Source: Alphaproteobacteria bacterium
GTDB lineage: Bacteria > Pseudomonadota > Alphaproteobacteria > Bin95
Assembly (NCBI GenBank): GCA_965205265.1
Contig: CBDBGH010000003.1
Span: 5,056,001-5,120,000, forward strand
Length of the DNA: 64,000 nucleotides
Reading direction: 5' to 3'
The translations under genes were made by a program, and so were the position numbers. Of this stretch, positions 27,910-43,707 are shown piece after piece. The notes beneath the pieces were generated by a model. That model did no database searches, was not told the DNA's origin, and saw only the letters and a list, made by a program, of their open reading frames with translations. The stretch's first letter is position 1, and every line of letters begins with the position of its first letter.

Positions 27910-28395
27910 TCATGGTCCGGTCCAGAGGCCGAGATCGTGCAGTTCGCGACGCAGGGACTCCGGAAGCCCGCCATCGTGGTGAACGCCGCCGGCGAGGTCC
28001 GGGGGAGCATCCCTGCCCTCGAGATAGCGCCAGCCGCGGAGGAAGCGCACCGGCCGCGGCTCGACCGCGACATGATGGGGCGAGCACATAATGGCGAAGT
28101 GATTTTCGAAGAACGGATCGTACCGGGTGGTGAATTCGCGCACCGGCTCCACCCCGACAAACGGCATCCGGAACATCGTATGGTTCCGATAGACGAAATA
28201 GACCGACCCGCCTTTCAGTTCATCGACCCTCCTGGGGCGCTGGCGCGCCCATGATCCGTAGAGGGTCCCCTGCCGTTGCCAGAGACGACAGCGGCGCAGC
28301 CAGACCTCCAGTGTCGTTCGCTCCCCGTCGAGGAACATCGGCAGCCGCTGCAGCAGGTGCAGTCGGCTGCTCATGCCGGAGAGGACCGGGTCCAT
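27910..28395 (-). CDS. DUF1489-like protein
   Basis: RPRRVDELKGGSVYFV...VEPRPVRFLRGWRYLEGRDAPPDL...LPESLRRELHDLGL; start 28395 or 28374. Confidence 0.75.
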   Translation of the reverse strand: MDPVLSGMSSRLHLLQRLPMFLDGERTTLEVWLRRCRLWQRQGTLYGSWARQRPRRVDELKGGSVYFVYRNHTMFRMPFVGVEPVREFTTRYDPFFENHFAIMCSPHHVAVEPRPVRFLRGWRYLEGRDAPPDLAGGVHHDGGLPESLRRELHDLGLWTGP

Positions 28396-28426: not shown

Positions 28427-30769
28427 TCATGCGGGTCCCGTGATCCGCTCGAAGCTGTCCCGGACGACGTCCGGCCAGGGCGGGGGAACGCCGGACACCC
28501 CGAAATCGCCGCTCGCATCGTCCCGACCGGGGGCGGGACGGGGCGTGTCCGGAGCGTGCCGGTAGAGCCCGAGGACGCGCTTCGAGTCCGGCCGGGAAGC
28601 GGCAATGACCACGGCCATTGTCATGGGGCGCAGCAGGTCCGGATCCTGGGAGCCGGTCTTCAACCGACGGGAGAACCCCCAAAACCGGTGCAGGGTTGAC
28701 ATGACGCGTGAGGAGACGCTTTCCACGACAACGGCCGGCCCGCCGTCCTTCCAGACCGATGTGAGACGGCTCATGCCCTTGCGGATCGACGATCTGTAAC
28801 GTTCGGGTTCGGCCATCTTGAACACCGGATGGTTGACGAGATCCATGGCCAGGAACCGCTCAAGCTTTTCCTGCGGCATGCCGCCGGCCGCCATGGCGTT
28901 GACACGGTCCCGGAATGTCGCCCAGCGCGCCGGGTCATGCCCGAGATATTCCCAAGGGGTCATGTTGCCCTTGGCCTCGTTTTCCTCGATGCCGCAGAGC
29001 GTCTTGTTGTTGAAACTGTTCCTGTGGCTCGGGACCCGGGAACGGGGCCAGATATGGTCGATATTGTAGCGCGGGGTGCGGCCGAACAGGGCGTCGAAAG
29101 AAATGGTGGCCCCCGTGTAGGGGCACCGCTTGCCTGTTTCTACCCAGAGCAGCCAGCGCTCGATCTGGTTGTCGGAAGGCTTCCGGATGCCGTTCCTCGC
29201 AAGGTCGTCCTTGGCGGCGTTGCGCTGGACGATCCGCCGGCGGCGCGCGATCTCGGCGATCCGAGGGTCCGGGTCCATGGCCAATTCGGTGGCAAACAGC
29301 GCCCGTACACGGTCCGGGCGTCCGAACCGGTCGGAAAGCGAGCGGGCGAGCGTACACATCAGATGGAAGGAATCGGCAGGCCGGTTCCGGCCGTCTTCGG
29401 CGTTGTCCTCCTGGCCGGGGAACACCGTCCGGCGCCACTGCTTCCATTCCTCGGTGTTGAGCAGGGTCGAGAAGCGGATGCCGCGCTCCAGCTGCGGAAG
29501 TATCGTTTCGAGGGCTTCCGCAGAGAACGGTTCCGCCCCGGCGCTCATTTCGAGCGCGGCGAGCGCCTCGGCCCGCCGGGCGGACAGACCGTACTCGCGG
29601 CAGAACCGCTGGGCGGCCGCGCGGCGCAAGGCGAGGCGCTCACCGACGGGCCGGACGATCGGCCGGTTATTCCCGTTGGCCCGGTAGTCGGCCTCCCAAA
29701 GCAGACCGGAAACCCGTTCGCGTATCTCGTCCCTGCGCGGATGGCGGTTCCATCGCTCGCCGAAAGCGGTTTGCAGGGCAACCTCGACCGGGTTGGCGGT
29801 CAGGCCGGCCTCGCCACCCTCCTCGAAATTGAACCGGGGCGGAATGAGGGTGCGGGAGTTGGCCCGGCCAACCGTTCCGGCCTCGCCCAGGGTGCGCCAT
29901 GCCTCGTCCCAGGACAGCGCTGCGCTGTTTTCGAGGGCTTCCCTGGCCTTGCGGCGCCGCTCCTGGCCTATCGGCCCGAGAATGTCCCGCACCTCGTTCC
30001 AGGACAGGAAATGACGGGCGCGAAGGGCATCAAGCAGCGCCGTCCGTTCAGGGTCCGAAAGCCTTCGGTCCTGCGGATAGACGATCGAAAGCGCATTGAG
30101 CTTGTCGAGCATCTGCTTTTCACGGGCGAGCCAGGTGCTCTTGGGGCAGAGTGGGGCCCCCGGCACGAAGGGACATTGGCCCGGGAACCGGTTGGGCGTC
30201 CAACTGTGCGGGCTGTCGGGGACCAGCGCGGCCTTGAGGCTCTGCCGCACCCCCGGAGCGGACAGCCCGTCATGATGGACCGCCTGACTGTCCCAGAGGA
30301 CATCGAATTCCTTCAGGAGATCCTCGCGGCATCCGGGTGGGCCCGGGAGGCTGTCGCGCCCCGACAGGCCCGTCCGGACCGCGCTGCCGGAGGCGATATA
30401 GAGGTCCTCGCCACGGCGGTGCTGCACAAGCTGAAAGAGGAGCCGCCCGAATTCCCGGCGCGCGAGCGCCTCGCCCCGGGCGGCTCGCAGCCGCAGGTGA
30501 GCGAGATCGCCGGTATCCGCGACCAGCCAGCGCCACTCGGCGGTATGCTGGTCGGGCAGGAGGCGGTGGGCGGCAAGCAGGCGTCGGGCCTGCCTGCGCC
30601 GGCCCAGGCCGTATCGCCGGGCGGCGCGGCGACGCGCCGGTCCGGCGACGATGTCGACGGGTTCCAGGCCGACCGAAAGGATCCGGCCGCCGTCCCCGTC
30701 GCCATCGCGTTCGACCACGGCATAGCCGACAAGGTTCGGTTGGACATTGAAACCGAAGGTCAGGGTCAC
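28427..30769 (-). CDS. truncated type II-C Cas9 derivative (~780 aa): HNH intact, RuvC inactivated, no PAM-interacting domain
   Basis: RuvC-I-like FGFNVQPNLVGYAVVE; Arg-rich bridge; LRLRAARGEAL..EFGRLLFQLVQHRRG; GQCPF...PKSTWL...LNAL; HNH RCPYTG.TISFDALF...IDHIWPRSR...NSFNNKTLC...NEAKGNMTPWE; ends at PPPWPD; GTG start overlaps the upstream TGA. Confidence 0.88.
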   Translation of the reverse strand: MTLTFGFNVQPNLVGYAVVERDGDGDGGRILSVGLEPVDIVAGPARRRAARRYGLGRRRQARRLLAAHRLLPDQHTAEWRWLVADTGDLAHLRLRAARGEALARREFGRLLFQLVQHRRGEDLYIASGSAVRTGLSGRDSLPGPPGCREDLLKEFDVLWDSQAVHHDGLSAPGVRQSLKAALVPDSPHSWTPNRFPGQCPFVPGAPLCPKSTWLAREKQMLDKLNALSIVYPQDRRLSDPERTALLDALRARHFLSWNEVRDILGPIGQERRRKAREALENSAALSWDEAWRTLGEAGTVGRANSRTLIPPRFNFEEGGEAGLTANPVEVALQTAFGERWNRHPRRDEIRERVSGLLWEADYRANGNNRPIVRPVGERLALRRAAAQRFCREYGLSARRAEALAALEMSAGAEPFSAEALETILPQLERGIRFSTLLNTEEWKQWRRTVFPGQEDNAEDGRNRPADSFHLMCTLARSLSDRFGRPDRVRALFATELAMDPDPRIAEIARRRRIVQRNAAKDDLARNGIRKPSDNQIERWLLWVETGKRCPYTGATISFDALFGRTPRYNIDHIWPRSRVPSHRNSFNNKTLCGIEENEAKGNMTPWEYLGHDPARWATFRDRVNAMAAGGMPQEKLERFLAMDLVNHPVFKMAEPERYRSSIRKGMSRLTSVWKDGGPAVVVESVSSRVMSTLHRFWGFSRRLKTGSQDPDLLRPMTMAVVIAASRPDSKRVLGLYRHAPDTPRPAPGRDDASGDFGVSGVPPPWPDVVRDSFERITGPA

Positions 30770-31256: not shown

Positions 31257-31685
31257 TCAGCCGCCGGTTTCCGGGGCGGGCGGTGCCGGGTATTTCGCGA
31301 CCACGTCCGCAATCCACTGGCCAACGCAGGCGCGGACATTGGCGCGCTGGACTTCCCCGCATTCCGTGTAGCCCGGCACGCAGGACCAGTCGTCACCGTC
31401 CAGCGCGTTCCGGGCCTGTGCCAGGGTGATCCGGGTGCGCGCCCAGGGGCCGCAATAATGGATGCAGAGAAGCTGGTCTTCGCATTTGTCTCCGGACCCG
31501 GCGTCCCAGTAGATGTAGTGGTCGGCGCGCACGAACCCGTTCGCCCGGCACCACTCGTCAATGCGCTCGCCGTAACTCTCGACCCATTCGAGCGGCGATC
31601 CCGCCCGGGCATAGAGGTCCAGATACGCATCGAGCTGGGCCTCCGTGGGTTCGGGGAGCAGACTGATCCAACGCGAGTAGGCCAT
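31257..31685 (-). CDS. hypothetical protein, paralog of 30766-31230
   Basis: MAYSRWISLLP.PT.AQ...NGFVRADHYIYW...DQLLCIH...DWSCVPGY...CV..W. Confidence 0.75.
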   Translation of the reverse strand: MAYSRWISLLPEPTEAQLDAYLDLYARAGSPLEWVESYGERIDEWCRANGFVRADHYIYWDAGSGDKCEDQLLCIHYCGPWARTRITLAQARNALDGDDWSCVPGYTECGEVQRANVRACVGQWIADVVAKYPAPPAPETGG

Positions 31686-32546: not shown

Positions 32547-32767
32547 GATGCCCTATGGCGCTTCGGGCTGATGTCCCGGTCCTCCGCAAGTCCACCGTGC
32601 TGCGGGCAGCCTTCGCCGAGAAGGCGTTCATGGCCGCAGGCGCTGCACCGGAACAGCGCGGTCGTCCATCCGCATTCGGGGCAATGCCAGAGCCCCGCCG
32701 GCCGGTAGCGGCGGTGCCGGCAGACAACGCCCCAGACACGGGCGAGAAAGGTCGCGGCGACGATCAT
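32543..32767 (-). CDS. small zinc-ribbon protein
   Basis: CPECG...CSACG...CPQHG; ATGA overlaps on both sides. Confidence 0.6.
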   Translation of the reverse strand: MIVAATFLARVWGVVCRHRRYRPAGLWHCPECGWTTALFRCSACGHERLLGEGCPQHGGLAEDRDISPKRHRAS

Positions 32768-33009
32768 GCATCCCCGTCGTCGCTGAATTTGCAGTAGCTC
32801 CAGCCTCTCCAGCGCCGGTCGCGGCAGAAGACCTGGGGTTGCATGCTCGGAGACGGGCCGCGCGTTCCGCGGGCCAGGAAGAACCGGCCGGAGGGATAGT
32901 CGGTCTCGATCCGGATGTCGCGCAGCTGTTTCGACCGTTGCCGCCGGGCGGCGGCGGCTTCGTCCGTGCTTTCGTAGAACTGCACCCGAACGTTGATCGC
33001 CCTGCTCAT
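32764..33009 (-). CDS. small CRDxxWR-family protein (paralog 4)
   Basis: RVQFY...SGRFFL...VFCRDRRWRGWSYC. Confidence 0.7.
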   Translation of the reverse strand: MSRAINVRVQFYESTDEAAAARRQRSKQLRDIRIETDYPSGRFFLARGTRGPSPSMQPQVFCRDRRWRGWSYCKFSDDGDA

Positions 33010-33251
33010 TCCGGGAGACCCTCCGTTGGCCATACGCACCGGCTCCAGCCTCTCCAGCGCCGGTCCCTGCAGAACACCTTGCGCTGCGAGAGCGGATTGG
33101 CCTCGTCCGCCTTGCGGTACAGGAAGACCCGGCCGGACGCATGGTGAATGTCCGTCTCGACGGGCGCCCGCCTCGACAGTCTCTCCATGTCGGCGGCCGC
33201 AGCCTCGGAGGTCGTATAGAGGGCAACCCGGGAATCGTAGCTCGCGCTCAT
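33006..33251 (-). CDS. small CRDxxWR-family protein (paralog 3)
   Basis: RVALY...SGRVFL...VFCRDRRWRGWSRC.WP. Confidence 0.7.
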   Translation of the reverse strand: MSASYDSRVALYTTSEAAAADMERLSRRAPVETDIHHASGRVFLYRKADEANPLSQRKVFCRDRRWRGWSRCVWPTEGLPE

Positions 33252-33496
33252 GCCGCCGCCACCGATCTCGGCCACTCGCACCGGCTGACGACACGCCAGC
33301 GCCGGTCGCGGCAGAGCACCCGGCGTTCTTTCCACCAGAGGTTCGGCTCGTCCGGGTTGCGGGCCAGGAAGCGCTGGCCGGTGAGTCTGTGGACCCTGAC
33401 GTAAACTCTCTTGGGGTTCGAGAGTCCGCTGCGGGCGGCACAGGCGTCCCGCCGGGTCCCGTAGAACTGCACCCGGCGGTCGATGCCGCTGCTCAT
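33248..33496 (-). CDS. small CRDxxWR-family protein (paralog 2)
   Basis: RVQFY...TGQRFL...VLCRDRRWRVVSRC.WP. Confidence 0.7.
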   Translation of the reverse strand: MSSGIDRRVQFYGTRRDACAARSGLSNPKRVYVRVHRLTGQRFLARNPDEPNLWWKERRVLCRDRRWRVVSRCEWPRSVAAA

Positions 33497-34005
33497 GACG
33501 GCGGGCCGTCCGGCCATTGGCAGGCCGCGAAGGGACGCCACACCTTGTCCCGGCAGAGGGCGTGGCGCGCCAGGTAACCTGACCGGATCAGAAACCGGCT
33601 GTCGGAGACAGGATGGCGAGCGATCTGGATGTGCATTGTGGCCGGGTGCCCGTCGCGCTCCTCGACAGCGGCGAAATCGCTTCCGAAGAACAGCACTTCC
33701 TCCGGACAGGTGAGCAGGGCGTCGATGCGGTTGGCCATCTCGTTGGCCCTGGGGGCCAGCGGCAGTGGATCGCCGTTTCTGTGAGCGGCGTTGCTCATGT
33801 CCAGAAGCAGGGCGTTGCAGTCGGCCAGCGCGGCGCGAAGCCGGACATTCCGTTCCTCCAGTTCCTCCCAGCAGAACGGGCAGATGGCGCCGTCGCGGCC
33901 CCAGTCATGGCGGGAGCCCAGTCTGGCGTCGCAAAGCTCCTTCAGCTTGGCCTGGGCGGCCTCGCTGCCCATGTCCACTTCGTGCCTGTAGCAGCCCCAG
34001 CCCAT
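33493..34005 (-). CDS. CRDxxWR-family protein with N-terminal Cys/coiled-coil extension (paralog 1)
   Basis: CYRH...CPFC, coiled coil, then SRFL...LCRDKVWR..AC.WP; first gene after the promoter. Confidence 0.7.
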   Translation of the reverse strand: MGWGCYRHEVDMGSEAAQAKLKELCDARLGSRHDWGRDGAICPFCWEELEERNVRLRAALADCNALLLDMSNAAHRNGDPLPLAPRANEMANRIDALLTCPEEVLFFGSDFAAVEERDGHPATMHIQIARHPVSDSRFLIRSGYLARHALCRDKVWRPFAACQWPDGPPS

Positions 34006-34094
34006 GGGTCTCACTCCCCGGTTGCAATCGTTCGTTCGGCGGCCATTCGCGCAGGCTGTTCCGGCGGCCCATGCGATGCCGGTCCTGAGCATGC

Positions 34095-34148
34095 AGTTTA
34101 CCGGCAGCGGGCAATTATGTCAATCCGATTGTCATGATAAGCGGATTG
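34095..34148 (-). promoter_or_regulatory. sigma70 promoter plus operator copy 4 driving the Cas9-derivative operon
   Basis: Minus-strand TTGACA (34123-34118)-N17-TAAACT (34100-34095); CAATCCGATTG-tcatga-TAAGCGGATTG at 34121-34148 overlaps the -35. Confidence 0.75.
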
Positions 34149-34275
34149 CGGTTTTGTCCTCCAGATCGCGGGAGGGCACTGCGTTCATGGGCGATTTCCC
34201 TCCCTCCTGCCTTGCCCTTGGAGAGCGTCAAGCGCCTTGTCCCGGAAGCGGGCGCACGGGGAAGAACAATGCCGG

Positions 34276-34569
34276 TCAGGGTTCCATGGTGGAGTCGGGC
34301 TCCGCGGCCGTCGCGAGACCGGGAACCTCCTCCCGGAAAAAACGGCGCAGGCGGGACTTCATCGTCCCCCAATTGTCAAGGCCGCGCAGACAGTCCTCTA
34401 CGCCTTCCTTGACCCGGTCGGGGACCGGGCAAGCGTCGCCGGGCTCGAAGAGAAAGCGCTCGGGACGGCTCGGGCTCCAGGGGGTCTGCACGACATGGCC
34501 GATCTCGGCGCCTTCCGGGGTGGCCACTGCGGCCCGGTTGCCTGTTCGGGCGGAAACGGTGACTTGCAT
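34276..34569 (-). CDS. small hypothetical protein
   Basis: AAGGAG RBS; ends DSTMEP. Confidence 0.6.
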   Translation of the reverse strand: MQVTVSARTGNRAAVATPEGAEIGHVVQTPWSPSRPERFLFEPGDACPVPDRVKEGVEDCLRGLDNWGTMKSRLRRFFREEVPGLATAAEPDSTMEP

Positions 34570-34620
34570 GGGCGCTCCTTACGGAGTTTTCAAAGGGACT
34601 TGCAATAGTGAGTTGGCGGC

Positions 34621-34962
34621 TCACGCCACGGACCCGGTCTCGCTCCCCACGCTCTCCTTGGCGAAGGCCACGGCGTCCTTGAGCTGTTCGGCGGTCGCCG
34701 GCGTGGCGTGGAACCAGGCGACTGGCGGATGCGGCCGGACGGCGCTTTCGGCGAAGAGGGCCTCGACGCCGGCAATCAGCCGGGCGTTGATCTCCCGCAG
34801 TCGTGCGGCCTCCCTCTCCGCCGCATCGGCAATGCCGGCATGGACATAATCGACTTCCCTTGACGGATAGTCGCAGGTCCAGAGCCGCAGGCGCGGCGGC
34901 GGGTTCTTCGCGGTCTGCACATAGTGGGGAAGGCCAACGGCCGATTCCAGCTGAGCGGTCAT
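34621..34962 (-). CDS. small hypothetical protein
   Basis: Start MTAQLE overlaps the upstream stop. Confidence 0.55.
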   Translation of the reverse strand: MTAQLESAVGLPHYVQTAKNPPPRLRLWTCDYPSREVDYVHAGIADAAEREAARLREINARLIAGVEALFAESAVRPHPPVAWFHATPATAEQLKDAVAFAKESVGSETGSVA

Positions 34963-35420
34963 CAGGGTGTCTCCGTCCTTCCCGACTCGGGTGCCGGGTC
35001 TTCGCCGATGTGCTGGAGGATGATGAACCGGGCATCGACGACCGCGCACAGCGGTAGCAGCGCCAGGAGGAAGATGCAGGCAGCCGGGTAGAGAAGCGGC
35101 AGACCCGGTTCGGCGTCCGGCGAGAGAATCTGCGTGGGAAGCGTGAATGCCCGGAGACCGGCCTCAAACACCATGATGCCGACCAGAAACACGACGGAGT
35201 AGATTGCGGCAAGGAGACCGAGGGTAGTGGGCTGGCGCCATGGCTTGACGGCGGACCGCACCCAGCCGTGGCGCAGGGCATCCCCGACAGGCCCCAGGGC
35301 GGGGACCATGTAGATGAGCATGACGGAAAGCGGGTCGACGACGGGATCCAGAAGCAGGCCGACGGCGGTCACCAGGAATACGGTCTTGACGACCAGGATG
35401 ACGAAGGTGGGGCCGTTCAT
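34962..35420 (-). CDS. membrane protein (~4 TM)
   Basis: Four hydrophobic segments; ATGA coupling. Confidence 0.65.
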   Translation of the reverse strand: MNGPTFVILVVKTVFLVTAVGLLLDPVVDPLSVMLIYMVPALGPVGDALRHGWVRSAVKPWRQPTTLGLLAAIYSVVFLVGIMVFEAGLRAFTLPTQILSPDAEPGLPLLYPAACIFLLALLPLCAVVDARFIILQHIGEDPAPESGRTETP

Positions 35421-36055
35421 GGCCGTGTTCCTTGCGGACGTTGATTCAGACCGGGCTCGGGGTGCGACCGAACCGGCTTCGAGGCTGCGGACATCACGAG
35501 CGCCGCGCGCCTGTGGGCGGCGAGGGCGTCTATGATGTCCAGCACCAATTGCTGCAGCCGCCTCTCGGAGGGCACGGGATCCAGCCACTCGAACTCGATC
35601 GCCGCTGCGCCCGCCCGGTCGTAGAAGACGCCGCTGAGCAGATCCGCCTGTCCCTGGCCGGCCGAAACCCGGTGCGGGTCTTCGCTAAGGTCAACCAGCC
35701 GGCAGCGGAAACGGGGCGCCCAGGTGTGGACGAGATAGGTCCGCCGCTCGCCGCTCGGCATGGGAAGACCGTGGGCGATCAACCAGCGGTCCCGACGCCA
35801 CTTCGGCTCCGGGGGCGTCTGGCCGAGCAGGCGGACGATGCGCATCTGAATGCGCGGCGGAACCTTATGGAGGTCCGCGGCCCAGCGCCTGATGCGGAAT
35901 CCCGGCACCCGGAGTTTCCGGGCAAGGGCGTGCAGGGACGGTTGCGGGAACACGAGGCGTCCCAGGCTGTCCCGGCCCGGACGCCCGCACAGGGCGCGCG
36001 CAAGGTCGAGAAAGGCTTTCCTGGAGCGGAATTCCGAAGGATTGTTCCCGGTCAT
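35417..36055 (-). CDS. hypothetical protein with HTH-like N-terminus and YLVHT..PRF domain
   Basis: ALARKLRV..FRIRRW; RTYLVHTWAPRFRCRLV...FEWLDPVP. Confidence 0.6.
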   Translation of the reverse strand: MTGNNPSEFRSRKAFLDLARALCGRPGRDSLGRLVFPQPSLHALARKLRVPGFRIRRWAADLHKVPPRIQMRIVRLLGQTPPEPKWRRDRWLIAHGLPMPSGERRTYLVHTWAPRFRCRLVDLSEDPHRVSAGQGQADLLSGVFYDRAGAAAIEFEWLDPVPSERRLQQLVLDIIDALAAHRRAALVMSAASKPVRSHPEPGLNQRPQGTRP

Positions 36056-36732
36056 CCAGGCGGCTCCGGCGAAGGGCCTGCGCTCGGGGACTCGTCCGGG
36101 CCGTCGGCCGGAGCCCCGAGACCGCGGGCTTTCCCCATCATGCGCGCCAGGACATGTTCCTGAAGCTCCATTATCCAGACGCGGTCGGTGCGCCCATCGG
36201 CGGAGTCGCGCCAGATCGCGGCTTGCTGGGCCATGGAGACCGCCGCGCCCAGATAGGCGGGAGTCGGTGTATGGAGGTCGAGCAGGCACCACATGACGCA
36301 GGACCGGACAGCTCCGAAATGGGGCACCGGGGTTGCGGGCAGTGCAGCGATCCGGTCGCGCAGCCTGATCGCCTCCATCCCGAAGGCCTGCGGCTCGCCG
36401 GCCTCGCCGTTGCCGGCCAGCCTTGCGAGCAGGGAGGCGGCCTTTGTGACAACGGGGTCCTCGAGCAGGGACGGGGTTCCCTGCCGCTGGACAAACCCTT
36501 CTTCCGACCATTCCCACGGGCCGGCGAGCGGACTGGCGTCGTCGGTGAACAGCCAGTGCCACCATGCGGCCCGCCTGTCGGCCGTCATGGCCTGCAGCAG
36601 CGCGACGAGCGTTCCGCCGGTCCGCTCGTTCTGCCTGCCGAGTTGCCCGGCGAGTGCATGGCGCGGCATCCGGTATCGTTCCTGATCGGTCAGGATACCG
36701 GATTGCAGCTCAGGGACCGGGTCCGTCATCAT
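36052..36732 (-). CDS. hypothetical protein, one copy of a helical domain shared with 36710-37741
   Basis: LQAMTADRRAAWWHWLF..DASPL. Confidence 0.65.
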   Translation of the reverse strand: MMTDPVPELQSGILTDQERYRMPRHALAGQLGRQNERTGGTLVALLQAMTADRRAAWWHWLFTDDASPLAGPWEWSEEGFVQRQGTPSLLEDPVVTKAASLLARLAGNGEAGEPQAFGMEAIRLRDRIAALPATPVPHFGAVRSCVMWCLLDLHTPTPAYLGAAVSMAQQAAIWRDSADGRTDRVWIMELQEHVLARMMGKARGLGAPADGPDESPSAGPSPEPPG

Positions 36733-37741
36733 GCGGTTCTCCTGTGGGTTCCGGAGCCCCTTCCGGGTCGAGCCGGAAATGCATGGCGAGCAACGCATCC
36801 GTTTCGGCGTTGGCCTGGGCGACCGGGTCCAGGGCGGCCGCCTCCCATCCCGCAACGGAGCGCAGCATGCCGACGGCCATCGAGAGGAACCGCGGGTCCC
36901 TGCGGTCGGGCTGGCCGGCCAGCCAGATCGCGGCCTCGCGGACAGCATGGAGCGCCGGCAAGGAGGAAGTGCGGGTTCTGCACAGTGTGTCGTGCCGCTC
37001 GACGAGATCGGGCGCGGGCTCGCCGCGGGCAAGGCGTCCGAAGCAGGCGCCCAGCATGGCGACGGGCTCGTCATGGAACCAGTTGCGGGCGGGACTTTCG
37101 GCACCGGAGAAAGCCCAGTGCCGCCATTCCGCGAATTCCTTTTCGGAGGTCCGGCTGAGCCGGGAAACCAGGCTCGAGGCCAGCTCGTCATTGCGCATGA
37201 CCAGAAATTCCGGCCGGTCGTCGGCCTGGGCAAAGCGCCGGCTGGCCGCTGCCATCGAGCGAAGGTTCCGCCTGATCGCGGCCTCGAGTTCGCCGGCCGG
37301 CAGACCCGACCCCCATACCCGGGCGCCGGCGGCCTGGGCGACCGCAGGCGTCAGCATTCCGGGAACCGACATCCGGCGGTCTCCCGAGAGCCAGAGGGCG
37401 GCCTGATGGGCTACCGCCGGGGCCGGCTGCAGGGGCTCGCGGGTTGCGCGCAGGCGTTCGGCAAGAGAGCGGAACGCCTCGGGCCGGTGCGGTTCGGCGC
37501 GCCCGAACTCGTCGAAAAGGCGCACGGCTTCAGGAAGAACGGGATGGCTGCGCCATGAGGAGGGCAGCGGGCTCTCGGGAGAGTCGAACAGCCATGCGCA
37601 CCAGGCGGCGAAGCCCTGCGGTGTCATCGCCTCCAGTCTGGCCGCGATGAGGCGCTCGCGTTCGCGGTTTTCAGCCCAGAGACCGAGACCGGTCCCCGGT
37701 GCCTGCCGGTCTTCGTGAGACGTTCCGGTATTCGGGTTCAT
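36710..37741 (-). CDS. hypothetical protein with two copies of the W..W.F...SP domain
   Basis: LEAMTPQGFAAWCAWLFDSPESPL and FAEWRHWAFSGAESPA; ends DDGPGP. Confidence 0.65.
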   Translation of the reverse strand: MNPNTGTSHEDRQAPGTGLGLWAENRERERLIAARLEAMTPQGFAAWCAWLFDSPESPLPSSWRSHPVLPEAVRLFDEFGRAEPHRPEAFRSLAERLRATREPLQPAPAVAHQAALWLSGDRRMSVPGMLTPAVAQAAGARVWGSGLPAGELEAAIRRNLRSMAAASRRFAQADDRPEFLVMRNDELASSLVSRLSRTSEKEFAEWRHWAFSGAESPARNWFHDEPVAMLGACFGRLARGEPAPDLVERHDTLCRTRTSSLPALHAVREAAIWLAGQPDRRDPRFLSMAVGMLRSVAGWEAAALDPVAQANAETDALLAMHFRLDPEGAPEPTGEPHDDGPGP

Positions 37742-37807
37742 CTGTGCGGCCTCGTGCGGCAAGGTAGAGGGCAACAGCCTAGCATCCCGCCAAGAAAAAG
37801 CCGTGGC

Positions 37808-38392
37808 CTATGCGTATGCGGTCCACGGCAGCGGATCGAACGCGCCGTCCGGGCGCCTCTCGATCCGGATCGCCGCCGCGAAGCTGGCGATGCGCACGTC
37901 GTTCCGCGACGAGGCCCGGCGCCGGAAGGGGCGGCCGACGAAACGGTTCGGAACCGGGGTCGCTGTCCCCGTCATCGATCCGGTCGCCACGCTGTGCCGG
38001 GCGATCTCGCGAAGCCAGACCATGGTCCGGCCGGCGAGTGCGGTGACCTGGTAGAAATCGACATTGGTCTGGTTGTATCCCCAGCTGGAGGCGAGGATAT
38101 CGCCGACGGCCAGGGAATGCGGCGCGTTGCGCCTCCCGTCGGCGTGCCGGTGCCGCTCGCGCCGGTCCCTGAACATCCTCTCGATGGCGTTGTCGCGGCT
38201 TTCGATACTCGCGTAGCGAAAGCGCATGACCGGCTTCCGGGCCCTGCCCTCGAATCCGGCGAAACAGAACTCGGTCTTTCCCTCGACGACAATGTCCCAG
38301 AGCCAGGCGACAGCATCGCTCTGCGGGTCCTGGCGCCGGGTTGCGTGGGTGGGGAAGTAGTCTTCCCTGGAACGTGCGGCGGCTCGCGGCAT
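37808..38392 (-). CDS. conserved plasmid/phage hypothetical protein
   Basis: VGDILASSWGYNQTNVDFYQV motif; GGAGGAG RBS. Confidence 0.75.
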   Translation of the reverse strand: MPRAAARSREDYFPTHATRRQDPQSDAVAWLWDIVVEGKTEFCFAGFEGRARKPVMRFRYASIESRDNAIERMFRDRRERHRHADGRRNAPHSLAVGDILASSWGYNQTNVDFYQVTALAGRTMVWLREIARHSVATGSMTGTATPVPNRFVGRPFRRRASSRNDVRIASFAAAIRIERRPDGAFDPLPWTAYA

Positions 38393-38893: not shown

Positions 38894-38969
38894 GCCGCAT
38901 TAGCTCAATGGACAGAGCGACGGTTTTCTAAACCGCGGGTTGCGGGTTCGAGTCCTGCATGCGGCCCCA
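38894..38969 (+). tRNA. tRNA-Arg(TCT)
   Basis: Cloverleaf, loop TT-TCT-AA, GGTTCGAGTCC, CCA. Confidence 0.88.
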
Positions 38970-38993
38970 GCCTCCGGGTTTCCAGCCCTGCCG

Positions 38994-39084
38994 GGGAGGG
39001 TGCCAGAGAGGCTGAATGGACCGGACTGTAAATCCGGCGGTACCGAAAGGGCCCGCGCAGGTTCGAATCCTGCTCCTCCCACCA
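38994..39084 (+). tRNA. tRNA-Tyr(GTA)
   Basis: CCGGA-CTGTAAA-TCCGG, long variable arm, ACCA. Confidence 0.9.
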
Positions 39085-39127
39085 GGGAACCGGGATACGG
39101 GGAAGCCGGGTCACGCCGACCTCCGGC

Positions 39128-39203
39128 GCCGCATTAGCTCAGCTGGTAGAGCAGTCGCCTTGTAAGCGACCGGTCGCGGGTTCGAGGCCTGCATGCGGCT
39201 CCA
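39128..39203 (+). tRNA. tRNA-Thr(TGT)
   Basis: GTCGC-CTTGTAA-GCGAC, CCA. Confidence 0.9.
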
Positions 39204-39206
39204 CCC

Positions 39207-39282
39207 GGCCCCTTCGTCTAAAGGTCAGGATACGAGATTCTCAATCTCGGGATGGCGGGTTCAAGTCCCCCAGGGGCCTCCA
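39207..39282 (+). tRNA. tRNA-Glu(CTC)
   Basis: CGAGA-TTCTCAA-TCTCG, CCA. Confidence 0.88.
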
Positions 39283-39386
39283 GAGGAACACTTACGGGCG
39301 CATGCCCCGTCTGCATGCGGGAAGAGGAACGAAGAAGGAGAAACAGCGCCGGGACACGGTGAAACACGACTCGGACATGCGCGGAT

Positions 39387-39461
39387 GCCGCATTAGCTCA
39401 ATTGGCAGAGCGGTCGTTTCGTAATCGACTGACGCGGGTTCGACTCCTGCATGCGGCTCCA
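39387..39461 (+). tRNA. tRNA-Thr(CGT)
   Basis: GTCGT-TTCGTAA-TCGAC, CCA. Confidence 0.85.
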
Positions 39462-39484
39462 GCCGGGATTTCCGGAAGCGGGAC

Positions 39485-39560
39485 GACCCCTTGGTCTAAC
39501 GGTCAGGATACGAGACTTTCAATCTCGGGGCGGCGGGTTCGATTCCCCCAGGGGTCACCA
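39485..39560 (+). tRNA. tRNA-Glu(TTC)
   Basis: CGAGA-CTTTCAA-TCTCG, ACCA. Confidence 0.88.
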
Positions 39561-39563
39561 AAC

Positions 39564-39657
39564 GGAAGGATGCCGGAGTCCGGTTTATCGGGGCGGGTTG
39601 CTAACCCGTTGTGCGCCGCAAGGCGCGCCGTGGGTTCGAATCCCACTCCTTCCGCCA
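39564..39657 (+). tRNA. tRNA-Ser(GCT)
   Basis: GCGGG-TTGCTAA-CCCGT, long variable arm, GCCA. Confidence 0.9.
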
Positions 39658-39696
39658 CCGGCCGCCGGGACAGCAAGGGGAGACGGAAGAAAACAC

Positions 39697-39771
39697 GATG
39701 CGGTGGGAGAGAGGCTTATCCGCGGGGCCGCAAACCCCGTTACGCCGGTTCGAATCCGGCCCGCATCTCCA
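39697..39771 (+). tRNA. tRNA-Cys(GCA), C at position 33
   Basis: CGGGG-CCGCAAA-CCCCG, U73, CCA. Confidence 0.8.
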
Positions 39772-39779
39772 GAACGGCA

Positions 39780-39857
39780 CGGGGTGTGGCGCAGTCTGGT
39801 CAGCGCGTCTGCTTTGGGAGCAGGTGGCCGCAGGTTCGAATCCTGCCACCCCGACCA
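39780..39857 (+). tRNA. tRNA-Pro(TGG)
   Basis: CGGGGTG acceptor, loop TTTGGGA, ACCA. Confidence 0.9.
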
Positions 39858-39865
39858 TGACACGG

Positions 39866-39939
39866 GCGTTCGTAGTTCAAAGGGAGAATACCAGGTCGCC
39901 ATCCTGGTGATCCCGGTTCGAGTCCGGGCGGACGCTCCA
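39866..39939 (+). tRNA. tRNA-Gly(GCC), C at position 33
   Basis: CCAGG-TCGCCAT-CCTGG, TCCA. Confidence 0.8.
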
Positions 39940-39948
39940 GAACATCCA

Positions 39949-40024
39949 TGGCCAGTAGCTCAACCGGCAGAGCACTGGATTGTTACTCCAGGGGTTGCAG
40001 GTTCGAAGCCTGCCTGGCCAGCCA
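39949..40024 (+). tRNA. tRNA-Asn(GTT)
   Basis: CTGGA-TTGTTAC-TCCAG, GCCA. Confidence 0.88.
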
Positions 40025-40025
40025 A

Positions 40026-40135
40026 GCGTCCGTGGTTCAAAGGAACGGTTCCGGGCTTCCGGGCGGCCGTTCCGAGGAAGGGCACCGGTTTTTTCAACAC
40101 CGGGGATGCGGGTTCGAATCCCGCCGGACGCTCCA
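40026..40135 (+). tRNA. atypical tRNA-like gene (Gly-type acceptor, D-loop hairpin insertion, 9-nt anticodon loop)
   Basis: GCGTCCG/CGGACGC-TCCA acceptor; canonical T arm GCGGGTTCGAATCCCGC; CCGGT-TTTTTCAAC-ACCGG. Confidence 0.6.
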
Positions 40136-40197
40136 GACACGTTACCGGCCGGCAGGCATCGCCAAGGTCCTGCCGGCCGGCACCGAGGGGACACGGA

Positions 40198-40473
40198 ATG
40201 GGACAGACAGTGTACAAGGAACATGTCACCGACGCCCTTGAGGGCGCCATGACCGGCCTGGCCCGCGAGGCGGGCGTGACCATGCCCTCGCTGATGGGCG
40301 CCATCGTGGTGTCGGTGCACCAGTCGCAGGAGGACGGGGCGCCGCCCGGGCTCCATATCGCGACGAACCTGCCCCGGGAGCTGTTTCACGAGGCTGTGGA
40401 ACGCCTTGCGGACCGGCAGGGGGCAGGGAAGGTCGAGCCGGACACGGAGGGCTATGCATCGGTCGGTTCGTAA
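40198..40473 (+). CDS. small hypothetical protein inside the tRNA array
   Basis: GAGGGG RBS, MGQTVY..., 91 aa. Confidence 0.55.
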   Translation: MGQTVYKEHVTDALEGAMTGLAREAGVTMPSLMGAIVVSVHQSQEDGAPPGLHIATNLPRELFHEAVERLADRQGAGKVEPDTEGYASVGS

Positions 40474-40478
40474 CTGGC

Positions 40479-40555
40479 GGGAGAGTGGCGGAAAAGGCAT
40501 ACGCGCCGGATTTAGGTTCCGGTCTATCCGGGTTCGAGTCCCGGCTCTCCTACCA
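40479..40555 (+). tRNA. tRNA-Leu(TAG), short variable loop
   Basis: CCGGA-TTTAGGT-TCCGG, ACCA. Confidence 0.82.
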
Positions 40556-40574
40556 GACGGCCGTGAAAGGACAG

Positions 40575-40648
40575 GCGGGTGTAGTTCAAAGGTAGAATGT
40601 CAGGTTTCCACCCTGAATATGCGGGTTCGATTCCCGCCATCCGCTCCA
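40575..40648 (+). tRNA. tRNA-Gly(TCC)
   Basis: TCAGG-TTTCCAC-CCTGA, TCCA. Confidence 0.9.
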
Positions 40649-40679
40649 GCGCCGGCCTGGGAACGGAATTCAACATGAG

Positions 40680-40752
40680 GGCCTCATAGCTCAGTGGATA
40701 GAGCAGCGGTTTCCGGGACCGCAGGTCGAAGGTTCAAGTCCTTCTGAGGCCT
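40680..40752 (+). tRNA. tRNA-Arg(CCG), CCA not encoded
   Basis: GCGGT-TTCCGGG-ACCGC; followed by CTA. Confidence 0.85.
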
Positions 40753-40839
40753 CTAGGACACCCCGGCACGACGCGCGTGGAAAGAGAGAACAAGACGCGG
40801 TTGCGCAGGGTTGAAGAAGGGAACGGGAGTGAAGTAAAG

Positions 40840-40931
40840 GGAAGCGTGCCGGAGTGGCTTAACGGGGCAGTCTTGAAAACTGACATGGGCCGGGAGGTCC
40901 ATCCTGGGTTCGAATCCCAGCGCTTCCTCCA
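40840..40931 (+). tRNA. tRNA-Ser(TGA)
   Basis: CAGT-CTTGAAA-ACTG, long variable arm, CCA. Confidence 0.9.
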
Positions 40932-40964
40932 TCCCCGTTCCTTCATGCGGGAGAAACAGTTCCA

Positions 40965-41039
40965 GGTCTCGTCGTCTAGTGGTAAGGACACCGGATTGTC
41001 GATCCGGCAACGCGGGTTCAATTCCCGCCGGGACCGCCA
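40965..41039 (+). tRNA. tRNA-Asp(GTC)
   Basis: CCGGA-TTGTCGA-TCCGG, GCCA. Confidence 0.9.
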
Positions 41040-41047
41040 AAACAAAC

Positions 41048-41123
41048 GGGGTCGTAGCTCAATCGGGAGAGCGTCTGCTTTGCAAGCAGAGGGTTGAGGG
41101 TTCAAGTCCCTCCGATTCCACCA
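41048..41123 (+). tRNA. tRNA-Ala(TGC)
   Basis: TCTGC-TTTGCAA-GCAGA, G3-U70, ACCA. Confidence 0.9.
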
Positions 41124-41125
41124 AT

Positions 41126-41162
41126 GGCCTCTCCACGGCCCACCAAGGCCCGTGGAGAGGCC
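41126..41162. repeat. 13-bp inverted repeat (hairpin) between tRNAs
   Basis: GGCCTCTCCACGG...CCGTGGAGAGGCC. Confidence 0.6.
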
Positions 41163-41207
41163 TCCAGATCGTACAGGGAGAAGATCCCGAAAAGAACACA
41201 GAAGGAC

Positions 41208-41283
41208 GGTCTCGTAGCTCAATGGACAGAGCGTCTGACTACGGATCAGAAGGTTGCGGGTTCGACTCCTGCCGAGACCTCCA
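41208..41283 (+). tRNA. tRNA-Arg(ACG)
   Basis: TCTGA-CTACGGA-TCAGA, CCA. Confidence 0.9.
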
Positions 41284-41286
41284 GAT

Positions 41287-41362
41287 GCCCGGGTAGCTCA
41301 GCTGGTAGAGCGCTGCGTTGAAGGCGCAGGCGTCGGTGGTTCGATCCCATCCCCGGGCACCA
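41287..41362 (+). tRNA. tRNA-Phe(GAA)
   Basis: CTGCG-TTGAAGG-CGCAG, ACCA. Confidence 0.9.
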
Positions 41363-41366
41363 TTGC

Positions 41367-41442
41367 GGCCCCGTAGCCAAGCGGTCAAAGGCTCCGGGTT
41401 CTGATCCCGGGATCCCTGGTTCGAATCCAGGCGGGGCTTCCA
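41367..41442 (+). tRNA. tRNA-Gln(CTG)
   Basis: TAGCCAAGCGGTCAAAGGC D arm; CCGGG-TTCTGAT-CCCGG. Confidence 0.88.
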
Positions 41443-41579
41443 GTTGCACCGGAGCGGTAAAGGCTATGGCGAAGTTTTCGGGCGAAGCCGCTAAAGGAGC
41501 CATGCGGTCCGGGTCGCCGCGATCCGATCCGGGTTCCGGCAAACCGGCCGCGCGGGCCTGCGGGAAGGAAGGTCGAAGG

Positions 41580-41891
41580 ATGATCCAGACGATAGAATGG
41601 GACAGCTACACATACCGGTCCTATGTAGGCCAGTGCGAAGAGAACATCGCCCGCCTCGAGGCGGAGCTCGATCGGGCGAAGCACCATCTGTCGTTCGCGC
41701 AGGCGCAGTTCCAGGCGGTTGTTCCGTTGGGGATGGCAGATTCCAGCCTGCCGTCCAATTTCGGCGAAATCGTGCTGGCGGCCGAATTCAACGCGGGAAT
41801 GCTTCCCGAGGGTGTCGAGATCGGCGCCAAGATCAGGAAGATTGCCGCCGACATGATGACGGGCAGCCAGTCGGCCCCTGTTCGGCGGTAG
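41580..41891 (+). CDS. small coiled-coil hypothetical protein
   Basis: GAAGGA RBS, MIQTIEW... Confidence 0.55.
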   Translation: MIQTIEWDSYTYRSYVGQCEENIARLEAELDRAKHHLSFAQAQFQAVVPLGMADSSLPSNFGEIVLAAEFNAGMLPEGVEIGAKIRKIAADMMTGSQSAPVRR

Positions 41892-42014
41892 CTCGACCCG
41901 GCAGGCCGCCACGCCCGGTGCCGGTCCAGGTATGCCGGCCACCATCGTCATGGACATGATGTTCGACCATGCATACTGGCGTTAGACAACAATAACCAGT
42001 ATTGTTGTCTAACC

Positions 42015-43097
42015 ATGCCATCCGCCCTCCGGTTCCACAGCCATTCCGGCCACGCCGCCTACCAGGATCTCCGGCGTCGGCTCATGGATGCGGCCGTGTC
42101 GGAAATCCGCGGCACCCCGACCCGGCTCGCCGTCAAGGGCCGCTATTTCTGGTACGACAAATACCGGGTCGGGACGGAGGTGAGACAGCGCTATATCGGC
42201 CCCGAGACCGACGGGCTGCTCGCCAGGCTGGACCGCCTGGCCGATTTGCGCAGGGATCGAAGGGCCACGGAGCGGGAACAGGCCCGACTCATCCGTTTCC
42301 TGCGGGCCGACAGCTATAACTCGCTGGACCGCGGCACCGGCAGCCTCCTGGCCTCCTTCGCCGGATGCGGCGTCTTCCGCCTGGGCGGCACGCTCATCGG
42401 GGCTGTCGCCTTCCAGCATTACGAGGGCGAACTCGGCGTGGTCATGGATTTCGAGCGGATAGCCCGGACCGACGACATCGACATCGCCAGCTTCGAACGA
42501 CTGTCCTTCGCCATCGGCGACAGCGTCGAAACGCCCTTGGAGGAGGTCTTTCGAGAGCTGAAGTTCCAGCCCGTTCCGTCCCTGGACCAGCGGCATGTCT
42601 GGCGCTGGCGCCAGACGACCGGCTCCGTCCTGGTCGAATTCCTGATGCCGGCGCACGGGGAGGAAGGGATACGCAGACTGCCCGCCCTGGGCGTCAGCGC
42701 CCGTGCGCTTCGTCATCTGGACTATCTTCTCGAAGATCCCGTTCCGGCCGTGTCTCTCTACCGGTCAGGCGTGCTTGTCCGGATTCCGCGTCCCGAGCGG
42801 TTCGCGATCCACAAGCTCATCGTGGCCGAACGCCGTCGGGGCGGCCCGGATTCCCTGAAGGCCTCCAAGGACCGGGCCCAGGCGGATTTCCTCATTGCCG
42901 CCCTGGCGGAAATGCGCCCGGATGAACTGGCTCTCGCCTATGGCGAGGCCATGGGTCGAGGCCCCGGCTGGAGCAATCGCATAACGGCAAGCCTGAACAG
43001 GCTGCCGGGCGCAAGGGAGCGCGTCCTGGGCGTTGTCGGCGCCGACGACGCCCATCCGCAGCCGTCGGCCTCCTCAACCATATCCGGCCCCGCCTGA
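42015..43097 (+). CDS. GSU2403-like nucleotidyltransferase-fold protein
   Basis: RQRYIGPET, GVFRLGGTLIG..AF..YEGELG, RTDDIDIA, PERFAIHKLIV, KDRAQA. Confidence 0.8.
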   Translation: MPSALRFHSHSGHAAYQDLRRRLMDAAVSEIRGTPTRLAVKGRYFWYDKYRVGTEVRQRYIGPETDGLLARLDRLADLRRDRRATEREQARLIRFLRADSYNSLDRGTGSLLASFAGCGVFRLGGTLIGAVAFQHYEGELGVVMDFERIARTDDIDIASFERLSFAIGDSVETPLEEVFRELKFQPVPSLDQRHVWRWRQTTGSVLVEFLMPAHGEEGIRRLPALGVSARALRHLDYLLEDPVPAVSLYRSGVLVRIPRPERFAIHKLIVAERRRGGPDSLKASKDRAQADFLIAALAEMRPDELALAYGEAMGRGPGWSNRITASLNRLPGARERVLGVVGADDAHPQPSASSTISGPA

Positions 43098-43498: not shown

Positions 43499-43574
43499 AG
43501 CCCTATAGCCAAGCGGTCAAAGGCTCCGGGTTTTGATCCCGGGATCCCGGGTTCGAATCCCGGTAGGGCTTCCA
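43499..43574 (+). tRNA. tRNA-Gln(TTG)
   Basis: CCGGG-TTTTGAT-CCCGG, TCCA. Confidence 0.88.
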
Positions 43575-43597
43575 ATACACACAACCTTTGCAACCGG

Positions 43598-43673: not shown

Positions 43674-43707
43674 ACCCTGAAACCGGGAGGTACGGACAGA
43701 AAACGGA

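Follow-up and report, generated by a model that had tools for sequence, protein, structure and literature searches.

An array-less Cas9 derivative with a replaced RuvC site, an intact HNH site and no WED/PAM-interacting end, encoded in a strain-specific island of an alphaproteobacterium

The stretch of DNA analysed here, referred to as the window, comprises 64,000 nucleotides of contig CBDBGH010000003.1 (C3) of an Alphaproteobacteria bacterium (assembly GCA_965205265.1; lineage Bin95), and corresponds to C3:5056001-5120000 of the 5.70 Mb assembly. On its minus strand, at 28427-30769, the window contains a gene derived from cas9 whose product, P0002, has 780 residues and is read from a GTG start to a TGA stop. 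The surrounding stop-to-stop frame covers 28427-31036 on the same strand, and its first listed start is a TTG at 30871 that would give a protein of 814 aa. The GTG at 30769 was accepted as the start because it overlaps the TGA stop of the upstream 154-aa open reading frame as GTGA, because it aligns with an internal Met that opens the conserved part of the homologue P0003, and because the residues upstream of it are unconserved. A codon-usage gene model gave P0002 a coding score of 160 over 780 codons, which is typical of the genome. A plus-strand reading of 28427-30769 was rejected, as that frame is full of stops.

When aligned with full-length relatives, P0002 follows the domain order of a canonical type II-C Cas9, namely RuvC-I, bridge helix, recognition (REC) lobe, RuvC-II, HNH and RuvC-III, with all parts encoded on the minus strand. 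The RuvC-I remnant (residues 1-42; 30644..30769) reads FGFNVQ where the nearest Cas9s have FGFDIG, the catalytic Asp being replaced by N8; P0003 reads FGFHVR, and a difference between Asn and His would be expected at a position that no longer matters. The Arg-rich bridge helix (residues 43-70; 30560..30643) is shortened at both flanks by deletions of 8 and 4 residues relative to the nearest full-length relatives, and six of its arginines (R46, R52, R57, R58, R62 and R63) are shared without change by the derivatives and the full-length Cas9s. The REC lobe (residues 71-465; 29375..30559), assigned from the alignment and the TIGR01865 match, has a deletion of ~45 aa and an insertion of ~28 aa. 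A 17-aa deletion lies just upstream of the RuvC-II remnant (residues 466-505; 29255..29374), which reads RVRALFATE in place of the IRVELTRD of the nearest Cas9s, with Leu for the catalytic Glu in both P0002 and P0003. The linker and HNH nuclease domain (residues 506-640; 28850..29254) keep D571, H572, N588 and N597 within the motifs NIDHIWPRSR, FNNKTLC and ENEAKGNMTP. In the RuvC-III remnant (residues 641-724; 28598..28849) both the catalytic His and the catalytic Asp are replaced, DLLRPMTMAVV standing in place of DHRHHAVDAL, and RPMTMA also occurs in P0003. The C-terminal tail (residues 725-780; 28430..28597) contains the motif PPPWPD, is predicted to be disordered and stops 19 residues past that motif, while the full-length relatives run ~250 residues further through the end of RuvC-III, the wedge (WED) domain and the protospacer-adjacent motif (PAM)-interacting (PI) domain. 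Overall, P0002 is ~250-280 aa shorter than a canonical II-C Cas9.

The four RuvC catalytic positions of P0002 read N, L, P and M. In a 103-row alignment the same columns hold D in 97/103, E in 100/103, H in 101/103 and D in 100/103 rows, and the only rows that depart from the catalytic consensus are P0002, P0003 and P0011. The HNH catalytic His is present in 103/103 rows and each of the two Asn residues in 102/103. Judged from the sequence, P0002 is a protein that lacks the RuvC catalytic set and the WED/PI region and carries the HNH catalytic set. The first-pass annotation of this DNA had already claimed as much: the unbroken 780-aa frame is borne out by the minus-strand translation, and its translational coupling to an upstream gene of no recognised kind by the GTGA overlap; every motif quoted for the replaced RuvC positions was found in the translation and the alignment; the HNH site, described as complete, has its four residues and a full-length HNH_4 match; the shortening of the bridge helix and REC corresponds to the flanking 8- and 4-residue deletions and the ~45-residue REC deletion; and the proposed end after PPPWPD, before WED/PI, agrees with the ~250 C-terminal residues absent from the alignment.

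P0002 is a Cas9 by both sequence and fold. It matches the NCBIfam model TIGR01865 with 186.4 bits (cut-off 100; E 9.4e-55), residues 148-642 aligning to model positions 206-661, and the Pfam family HNH_4 (E 4e-16) with positions 1-54 of 54 covered. A phmmer search of PDB sequences returned 42 at E <= 1, of which Neisseria Cas9 was the top match (3e-19). The AlphaFold2 model, built on the 103-row alignment, has a mean predicted local distance difference test (pLDDT) score of 80.3 and a predicted template modelling score of 0.69; the last 57 residues (724-780) fall below a pLDDT of 50 and are predicted to be disordered. With this model, Foldseek returned 174 PDB matches at E <= 0.001, headed by SaCas9, ThermoCas9 and Nme1Cas9 at E ~1e-22, and the best 50 of the 174 are all Cas9. 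These leading matches are small Cas9s. A fold search of BFVD with P0002 gave no match at E <= 0.001.

Database searches returned a single homologue with the same truncation, P0003, a protein of 807 aa that is 59% identical to P0002 over 99% coverage. P0003 has the deletions, the insertion and the end point of P0002, and the Glu to Leu replacement and RPMTMA are common to both. A word-indexed search of 5.8 billion clusters scored 8000 candidates and gave five proteins at E <= 0.001, namely P0002, P0003 and three full-length Cas9s at 27-32% identity. HMMER, run exhaustively over 1.84 billion representatives at 50% identity, gave 2488 matches at E <= 0.001, the best after P0002 itself being a 1061-aa Cas9 (2e-97); among the best 150 of these 2488 matches the truncated architecture was not seen besides the query, the rest being proteins of near-full Cas9 length or shorter partial matches, 0 of which align with P0002 from end to end. 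Genome contigs yielded seven loci at 25-29% identity to P0002 and no further family member, and metagenome contigs yielded six loci that match only the HNH region. No match was found in viral contigs searched with the two-member alignment of P0002 and P0003; the phage collection gave one record, at 27% identity over 28% of P0002, and the plasmid collection 49 records, 0 of which cover 80% of it. In 60 related genomes we found partial matches or far longer frames, the best four being 1042-1086 aa, and no truncated form. Among Cas9 relatives on viral contigs, 0/28 have the P0002 pattern, in a screen in which one of the three patterns required an intact RuvC-III and which was biased against such proteins to that extent.

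Two other proteins with altered catalytic sites were encountered. P0011, from a 26628-bp ENA contig, is a full-length 1027-aa II-C Cas9 in which the RuvC-II Glu is Lys, the RuvC-III Asp is Thr and the HNH site is intact; it groups with P0016 (support 99), away from the derivative pair, and is thus a separate case in which RuvC was partly inactivated. In the alignment, a Cas9 relative of 1068 aa on viral (IMG/VR) contigs (L041 and L042) reads Gln at the RuvC-I Asp, Gln at the RuvC-III His and Asn at the HNH His, and it may be fully dead.

Conservation between P0002 and P0003 is uneven across the domains. The HNH region is the most conserved (91/135 identical residues, 67%), followed by the bridge helix (18/28, 64%), REC (234/394, 59%; 57-64% by segment) and RuvC-III (49/84, 58%), while RuvC-I plus RuvC-II together reach 38/80 (47.5%); the difference between HNH and RuvC-I plus RuvC-II is significant (Fisher p = 0.006). 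Measured against the resident II-C Cas9 of the same genome, P0002 is 54% identical in HNH, 35-45% in REC, 29% in RuvC-I (48% between P0002 and P0003), 20% in RuvC-II (47% between P0002 and P0003) and 27% in RuvC-III. The order is reversed among full-length relatives, where comparison of the resident Cas9 with P0004 or P0007 gives 68-91% in the RuvC segments and 56-64% in HNH. Contigs of three other sequencing runs are identical to the window in all pieces listed, with 0 other letters in pieces over 200 nt.

Two of the genes upstream of P0002 probably accompany P0003 as well. The 154-aa product P0156 (30766..31230, minus strand), whose stop overlaps the P0002 start, has exactly one homologue in the 5.8-billion-cluster database, P0157 (147 aa, 45% identity), and the 273-aa product P0158 (31725..32546, minus strand) likewise has exactly one, P0159 (271 aa, 68% identity). 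P0003, P0157 and P0159 each come from ENA, and each is found on a single contig of 7340 bp. Given the shared source, the contig count of 1 and the identical length, the three probably lie on one and the same 7340-bp contig, and the genes would therefore form a conserved module of at least three members.

The truncated homologue at 59% identity, the two co-conserved neighbours, the domain-specific conservation and the lack of a separate WED/PI gene together support exaptation rather than decay of P0002. Ordinary decay is excluded as far as comparison of two sequences allows. The preference for exaptation voiced at first pass is upheld on these grounds, and the search for homologues with the same truncation that it had proposed has produced one, P0003. 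We consider it probable that P0002 is a repurposed derivative of Cas9 under selection, within a module of three genes that is itself conserved.

The ancestry of P0002 was examined in a maximum-likelihood tree of 53 sequences (IQ-TREE, LG+G4, short search). The derivative pair is recovered with a support of 100, and its sister group comprises the resident II-C Cas9, P0004 and P0005 (Shimodaira-Hasegawa-like approximate likelihood ratio 95); since the two are sister clades, P0002 shares its II-C lineage with the resident Cas9. Its placement in the tree indicates that P0002 is nested inside II-C and descended from the lineage used by the genus. The stem branch of the pair is very long, at 1.46 substitutions per site, and its tips, at 0.29 and 0.41, are no longer than those of active Cas9s, a combination that fits a burst of change followed by constraint.

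Three full-length cas9 genes are present in the genome, and each type II array adjoins its own. The nearest is the resident II-C cas9, at C3:5127293-5130463, ~41 kb from P0002 and just outside the window. Its locus, 37-44 kb from P0002, comprises cas9, cas1, cas2, an array of 11-12 repeats (C3:5123375-5124047) and an anti-repeat (C3:5130508-5130529). The remaining two, found at 3.78 and 5.45 Mb, have identical frames of 1190 aa, and a large array accompanies each. Orthologues of the resident II-C Cas9 occur in 4/16 other genomes of the genus (frames of 1042-1086 aa), where the truncated form occurs in 0/16. The resident cas9 is interrupted by an insertion sequence (IS) of 1815 bp (C3:5125493-5127307, locus L034, outside the window), whose copies elsewhere are 99.4-100% identical, and the displaced C-terminal piece of cas9 sits beyond it, between the IS and cas1. 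In the II-C array, spacer 3 has a 30/30 match to a TrbI-like gene on the same chromosome (locus L035, C3:4761995-4762024, outside the window); this gene lies within a Dot/Icm-type transfer cluster (DotH/IcmK, DotI/IcmL), making spacer 3 a self-targeting spacer. The description of P0002 at first pass as a solo Cas9 holds locally, the 64-kb window containing no cas1, cas2, type II repeat or anti-repeat, and fails at the scale of the genome, with one II-C locus 37-44 kb off and two further type II loci.

The scan of the window against Rfam returned tRNAs only. A blastn-short search with the two type II repeats gave just 11-12-nt matches near P0002, of a kind seen hundreds of times across the genome, and the same search recovered the three resident anti-repeats. 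In an ungapped pairing score that allows G:U, the best island site reaches 27/36, a score attained by 410 sites in the genome. Genes around P0002 are packed, the largest gaps being 218-500 nt. As the island has no array, cas1, cas2 or anti-repeat, any Cas9-type guide for P0002 must come in trans.

The P0002 gene belongs to a run of ~15 same-strand genes called by the codon-usage model from 38392 down to 27910. A tandem paralogue of P0156 lies at 31257..31685 (minus strand; 142 aa, 38% identity over 140 aa), between P0156 and P0158. Further upstream are ~10 more small open reading frames called by the codon model (32764..38392, minus strand), which have no family matches; three of them, at 32764-33541 (minus strand), are tandem paralogues of 81-97 aa, and a sigma-70-like site that matches 10/12 positions is found at 34095-34123. 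The genes upstream of P0002 gave no Pfam, PHROG or PADLOC match (PHROGs, 0/10 neighbours). The structural model of P0156 is weak (pLDDT 69.5, 3-row alignment), with no PDB match at E <= 0.001 and no usable match in Protein Atlas, and for P0158 the leads from the latter were no more than weak (0.83-0.90) and pointed to hypothetical proteins and phage early proteins. Complex prediction for P0002 with P0156 scored 0.00 against a mark of 0.32, which is evidence neither for nor against a partnership. A DUF1489 gene (27910..28395, minus strand; PF07370, E 2.6e-23) starts 31 nt downstream of P0002 and is a candidate member of its module; it has two paralogues elsewhere in the genome at 38-41%, no solved relative was found for it, and a limited literature search found no paper on it. 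Converging on it from 26109-27893 (plus strand) is a gene for a 594-aa protein with a C-terminal RNase H domain (E 6e-7) and long N-terminal hexapeptide-like repeats.

The 20 kb around P0002 are absent from 16/16 same-genus genomes, the exceptions being a HipA gene, dispersed tRNAs and a short stretch that codes for HNH. Divergent from the P0002 operon, ARAGORN and Rfam identify an array of 28 tRNA genes at 38894..45696 (plus strand) that covers all 20 amino acids. All 28 anticodons also occur among the other 58 tRNAs of the genome, which form no further cluster of four or more, and the array tRNAs are only 76-92% identical to their housekeeping counterparts. The array, whose G+C content is lower (0.63), contains an intervening PF12281 nucleotidyltransferase gene (42015-43097). 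It resembles a supernumerary set of mobile-element type and provides island context for P0002; a functional link between the two is not implied. The first-pass account of the surroundings had missed this array, the strain-specific island and the three full-length cas9 genes, including the nearest relative 41 kb off. Elsewhere on the chromosome, a III-B locus at C3:3.40-3.41 Mb (Cmr2-Cmr3, RAMPs, a Cas4-Cas1 fusion and Cas2) includes an array whose spacer 19 matches the island at window positions 46687-46722 (33/36 positions), the only one of 164 extracted spacers to do so. Absence from 16/16 same-genus genomes, the tRNA array, the IS and other mobile-type content and the spacer match make the island look acquired, as mobile-type DNA of unsettled kind.

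Other genes of the window add to this picture of its content. Two HipA-like kinase genes (21174-22439 and 24490-25893), a pair of tandem paralogous small open reading frames (49% identical; 23352-24136) upstream of the second of them, and a SocA/Panacea-domain gene (48528-49064) make up a toxin-antitoxin-rich setting. Ankyrin-repeat proteins are also encoded, and a pentapeptide-repeat protein (49995-50867) adjoins a GyrB/ParE-like gene. The latter (51634-53631) is a second, diverged copy, 78% identical to that at C3:1.89 Mb, and second copies of RNase H (16623-17087; 66% to the copy at C3:1.42 Mb) and RecJ (18124-19893; 76% to C3:2.18 Mb) are present as well; such copies hint at a large acquired, replicon-like region, in keeping with the 'contamination' of 7.3% given for the assembly. 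The region is bracketed by two inverted copies of an IS21-family element (IstA-like, IstB and a DUF3991 gene) at 6348-9521 (minus strand) and 58276-61449 (plus strand), and ~15 copies of this element occur genome-wide. A DDE transposase IS at 56461-58116 has more than 70 copies in what is a very IS-rich genome. DUF6878 genes are scattered at 4792-6228, 10407-12588 and 15656-16465, and another lies beside the resident II-C locus (11746-12243 of L034); their presence at both loci suggests that P0002 and the resident cas9 may share one large accessory region. At 3491-4046 there is a degenerate orphan CRISPR-like array (CRISPR, short palindromic repeats that are clustered and regularly interspaced) of 7-8 palindromic repeats of ~36 nt ending in ATTGAAG and spaced 73-80 nt apart; its repeat is not of type II, and no cas genes adjoin it. 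A blastn scan for diverged paralogues along the C3 tail did not delimit the island.

We take P0002 to be a functional Cas9 that was repurposed from the II-C lineage of the resident Cas9, and hold with good confidence that it is a selected derivative within its conserved three-gene module; what it does is a more tentative matter. A Cas9 without a PI domain cannot license the opening of duplex DNA, and with the WED/PAM-interacting end lost P0002 cannot find or open double-stranded DNA via a PAM. The HNH domain of Cas9 cuts only the guide-paired strand. We propose that P0002 is a Cas-derived mimic whose action on the type II-C pathway is exerted in trans. Through its bridge helix and REC lobe it would bind CRISPR RNA (crRNA) and trans-activating CRISPR RNA (tracrRNA) of the resident type, and so would withdraw or misuse the guides of a related resident system, most plausibly in an anti-CRISPR direction; its retained HNH domain would cut only a single strand paired to the bound RNA. 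This mimic or guide-sink mechanism, drawn by analogy from the role proposed for the phage-encoded, RuvC-inactive II-C2 Cas9s discussed below, is the reading we place first, at somewhat less than an even chance. We rank the alternatives below it in the order guide-free HNH module, host-side nuclease, pseudogene and split gene.

Several observations weigh against this mechanism. In known Cas9s, WED and PI help hold the guide scaffold, and P0002 lacks both, so guide binding may be weak or lost. The HNH catalytic residues are conserved, and a pure RNA sink would not need them. The REC lobe is only 35-45% identical to that of the resident Cas9, and Cas9s at such a distance in REC often no longer share guides. 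No anti-repeat in the island rises above the genome background, either by blastn-short or by pairing score. The II-C2 loci, in the descriptions available to us, have an SNF2 helicase and a tracrRNA of their own whose anti-repeat fits the host repeats, whereas P0002 has no such helicase near it, the sole PF00176 match lying at C3:3538882, ~1.5 Mb off, and its island has no anti-repeat. Neither a phage capsid (PF05065) nor a VirB4 family was found in the genome, and a phage or conjugative nature of the island is not established. The family has only two known members, and its conservation is read from the single comparison of P0002 with P0003. Within this strain, moreover, the resident II-C cas9 is interrupted by the IS ~16 codons before its stop, which may leave little to inhibit; a perfect self-targeting spacer often signals an inhibitor, but the IS-damaged cas9 alone could explain its tolerance.

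Next in rank, and somewhat unlikely in our estimate, is that P0002 works as a stand-alone HNH module, in which the Cas9 scaffold serves as a guide-free or differently loaded platform that the orphan partners regulate or target, in defence or in competition between elements. HNH is the most conserved domain and has its catalytic set intact, P0002 is translationally coupled to P0156, an orphan whose gene is retained in the one further case known, the module comprises three genes or more, the very long stem (1.46) suggests a changed function, and toxin-antitoxin-type genes are plentiful in the island (two HipA-like kinases, a Panacea domain). Such a module, however, has no obvious need for the six bridge-helix arginines and the whole REC lobe that are kept; no PADLOC model but Cas9 fits P0002, PtuB being reached at just E 5e-4 and via HNH; and its partners have no recognisable sensor or regulator domain. 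A more novel reading, which we think rather unlikely, is one in which P0002 would be a PAM-independent, HNH-only 'half-Cas9', derived from a captured and remodelled cas9 of the host lineage, that loads RNA of the crRNA and tracrRNA type coming in trans from a related resident II-C system and, with its two partners, either destroys or sequesters those guides, as an enzymatic and new class of Cas-derived anti-CRISPR, or cuts single-stranded DNA or RNA that pairs with them.

That P0002 serves its host as a PAM-independent RNA-guided nuclease, loaded with resident type II crRNAs and extending immunity by HNH cleavage of single-stranded DNA or RNA, appears improbable. Retention of the bridge helix, REC and HNH with loss of PI is the set expected for guide-paired single-strand cleavage as opposed to duplex opening, three type II arrays offer guides in trans, and PAM-free cleavage of single-stranded DNA or RNA is a property of some II-C Cas9s. 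Yet P0002 is missing from all 16 further genomes of the genus, among them the 4 that have an orthologous II-C Cas9, it lies among orphan genes in a strain-specific island and not at a cas locus, and binding of a guide scaffold without WED/PI is putative.

A decaying cas9 pseudogene that is still open by chance is a far less credible explanation. It would account for the lost RuvC catalytic residues and C-terminus and for a family of two members among ~15 billion proteins, and contigs from other runs, being 100% identical, give no population variation. Against it stand two uninterrupted frames of 780 and 807 aa that share one architecture at 59% identity, unequal conservation of the domains with HNH highest, tip branches no longer than those of active Cas9s, a genome-typical coding score and co-conserved neighbours. 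Least tenable of all is a split gene, in which P0002 would be one half of a normal Cas9 and the WED/PI part, array and tracrRNA would lie elsewhere, an outcome that had been named at first pass as one that would overturn exaptation: the genome does have type II arrays and anti-repeats at other sites, but with the C-terminal 250-266 aa of three related Cas9s as tblastn queries the resident full-length cas9 was the sole match, nothing besides it falling below E 0.03, each type II array lies beside its own full-length cas9, the RuvC site would stay dead, and P0003 ends at the matching place.

To our knowledge, very few Cas proteins have been repurposed after loss of their array, and we know of no Cas9 case that has been bench-tested. 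P0002 is informative in this respect as its bridge helix, REC lobe and HNH site have been kept in two lineages, together with two partner genes, despite the loss of PI. If it binds resident guides, it would be a natural, compact mimic, blocking or redirecting immunity by Cas9, and would show what the REC-HNH half of Cas9 does alone; if it binds no RNA, it would be a case of the Cas9 scaffold being reused as a guide-free nuclease. Both outcomes bear on the reuse of CRISPR effectors when hosts and mobile elements come into conflict.

Compared with known systems, P0002 shares its domain order, TIGR01865 match and fold with canonical II-C Cas9s (the resident protein; Nme1Cas9, 6jdv; SaCas9, 5axw), but these have the RuvC residues, WED/PI and adjacent cas1, cas2, array and tracrRNA, none of which P0002 has. 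It resembles IscB and the OMEGA systems in having an HNH domain inserted in a RuvC fold, a small size and no array. IscB has no REC lobe and uses its own omega-RNA; identity with this group was rejected, given that P0002 has a Cas9 REC lobe (TIGR01865 positions 206-661) and is nested in II-C and not basal to it. The Cas9 D10A nickase and Cas12k are nuclease-impaired class 2 effectors that keep nucleic-acid binding. The engineered D10A nickase, Cas12m and Cas12k may offer a parallel in which one nuclease site is lost and nucleic-acid binding is kept, the latter by analogy in P0002; all three, however, keep PAM recognition and their own guide locus, and P0002 keeps neither. Cas12m is presented as a natural nuclease-impaired class 2 effector in the available text of PMC11656645. 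The same source lists viral Cas4, the Cas8f mimic AcrIF3 and AcrIII-1 as cases in which mobile elements use Cas-related proteins against CRISPR. These proteins are small and work by other routes, and the likeness of P0002 to them would be one of concept, as inhibition by P0002 is itself a proposal.

The closest parallel is with the phage-encoded II-C Cas9s described by Altae-Tran et al. 2023 (PMC10910872), for which we rely, as for the two papers cited next, on the portions of text accessible to us. In that account these proteins have an inactivated RuvC, an active HNH and no array; their loci lie next to an SNF2 helicase and encode a tracrRNA that pairs perfectly with host repeats, and the authors propose that the phage Cas9 binds crRNAs and in this way derails the immunity of the host. 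Makarova et al. 2025 (PMC12669027) name this phage RuvC-inactive variant II-C2 (Cas9c), and Koonin and Makarova 2024 (PMC11656645) place it among the rare Cas-derived anti-CRISPRs; the evidence given for it in these sources is computational. As with II-C2, P0002 is derived from II-C, has its three RuvC motifs inactivated, an apparently active HNH and no array, and lies on non-core DNA in a genome with a related, active-type II-C system. II-C2 resides in phage genomes, whereas no phage structural genes were found with P0002 (PF05065 genome-wide; PHROGs, 0/10 neighbours). P0002 further lacks WED/PI and has two orphan proteins as partners, a comparison made with the II-C2 proteins by their published descriptions, and a limited literature search met no WED/PI-less Cas9 derivative in print. 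The novelty attached to P0002 by the first-pass annotation was accordingly too high, since array-less, mobile Cas9s with a dead RuvC and a live HNH are described in PMC10910872, PMC12669027 and PMC11656645. To the extent that these texts describe it, the kind to which P0002 belongs is already in print as II-C2-like, and what sets P0002 apart is the loss of PI, the absence of a tracrRNA and its orphan partners.

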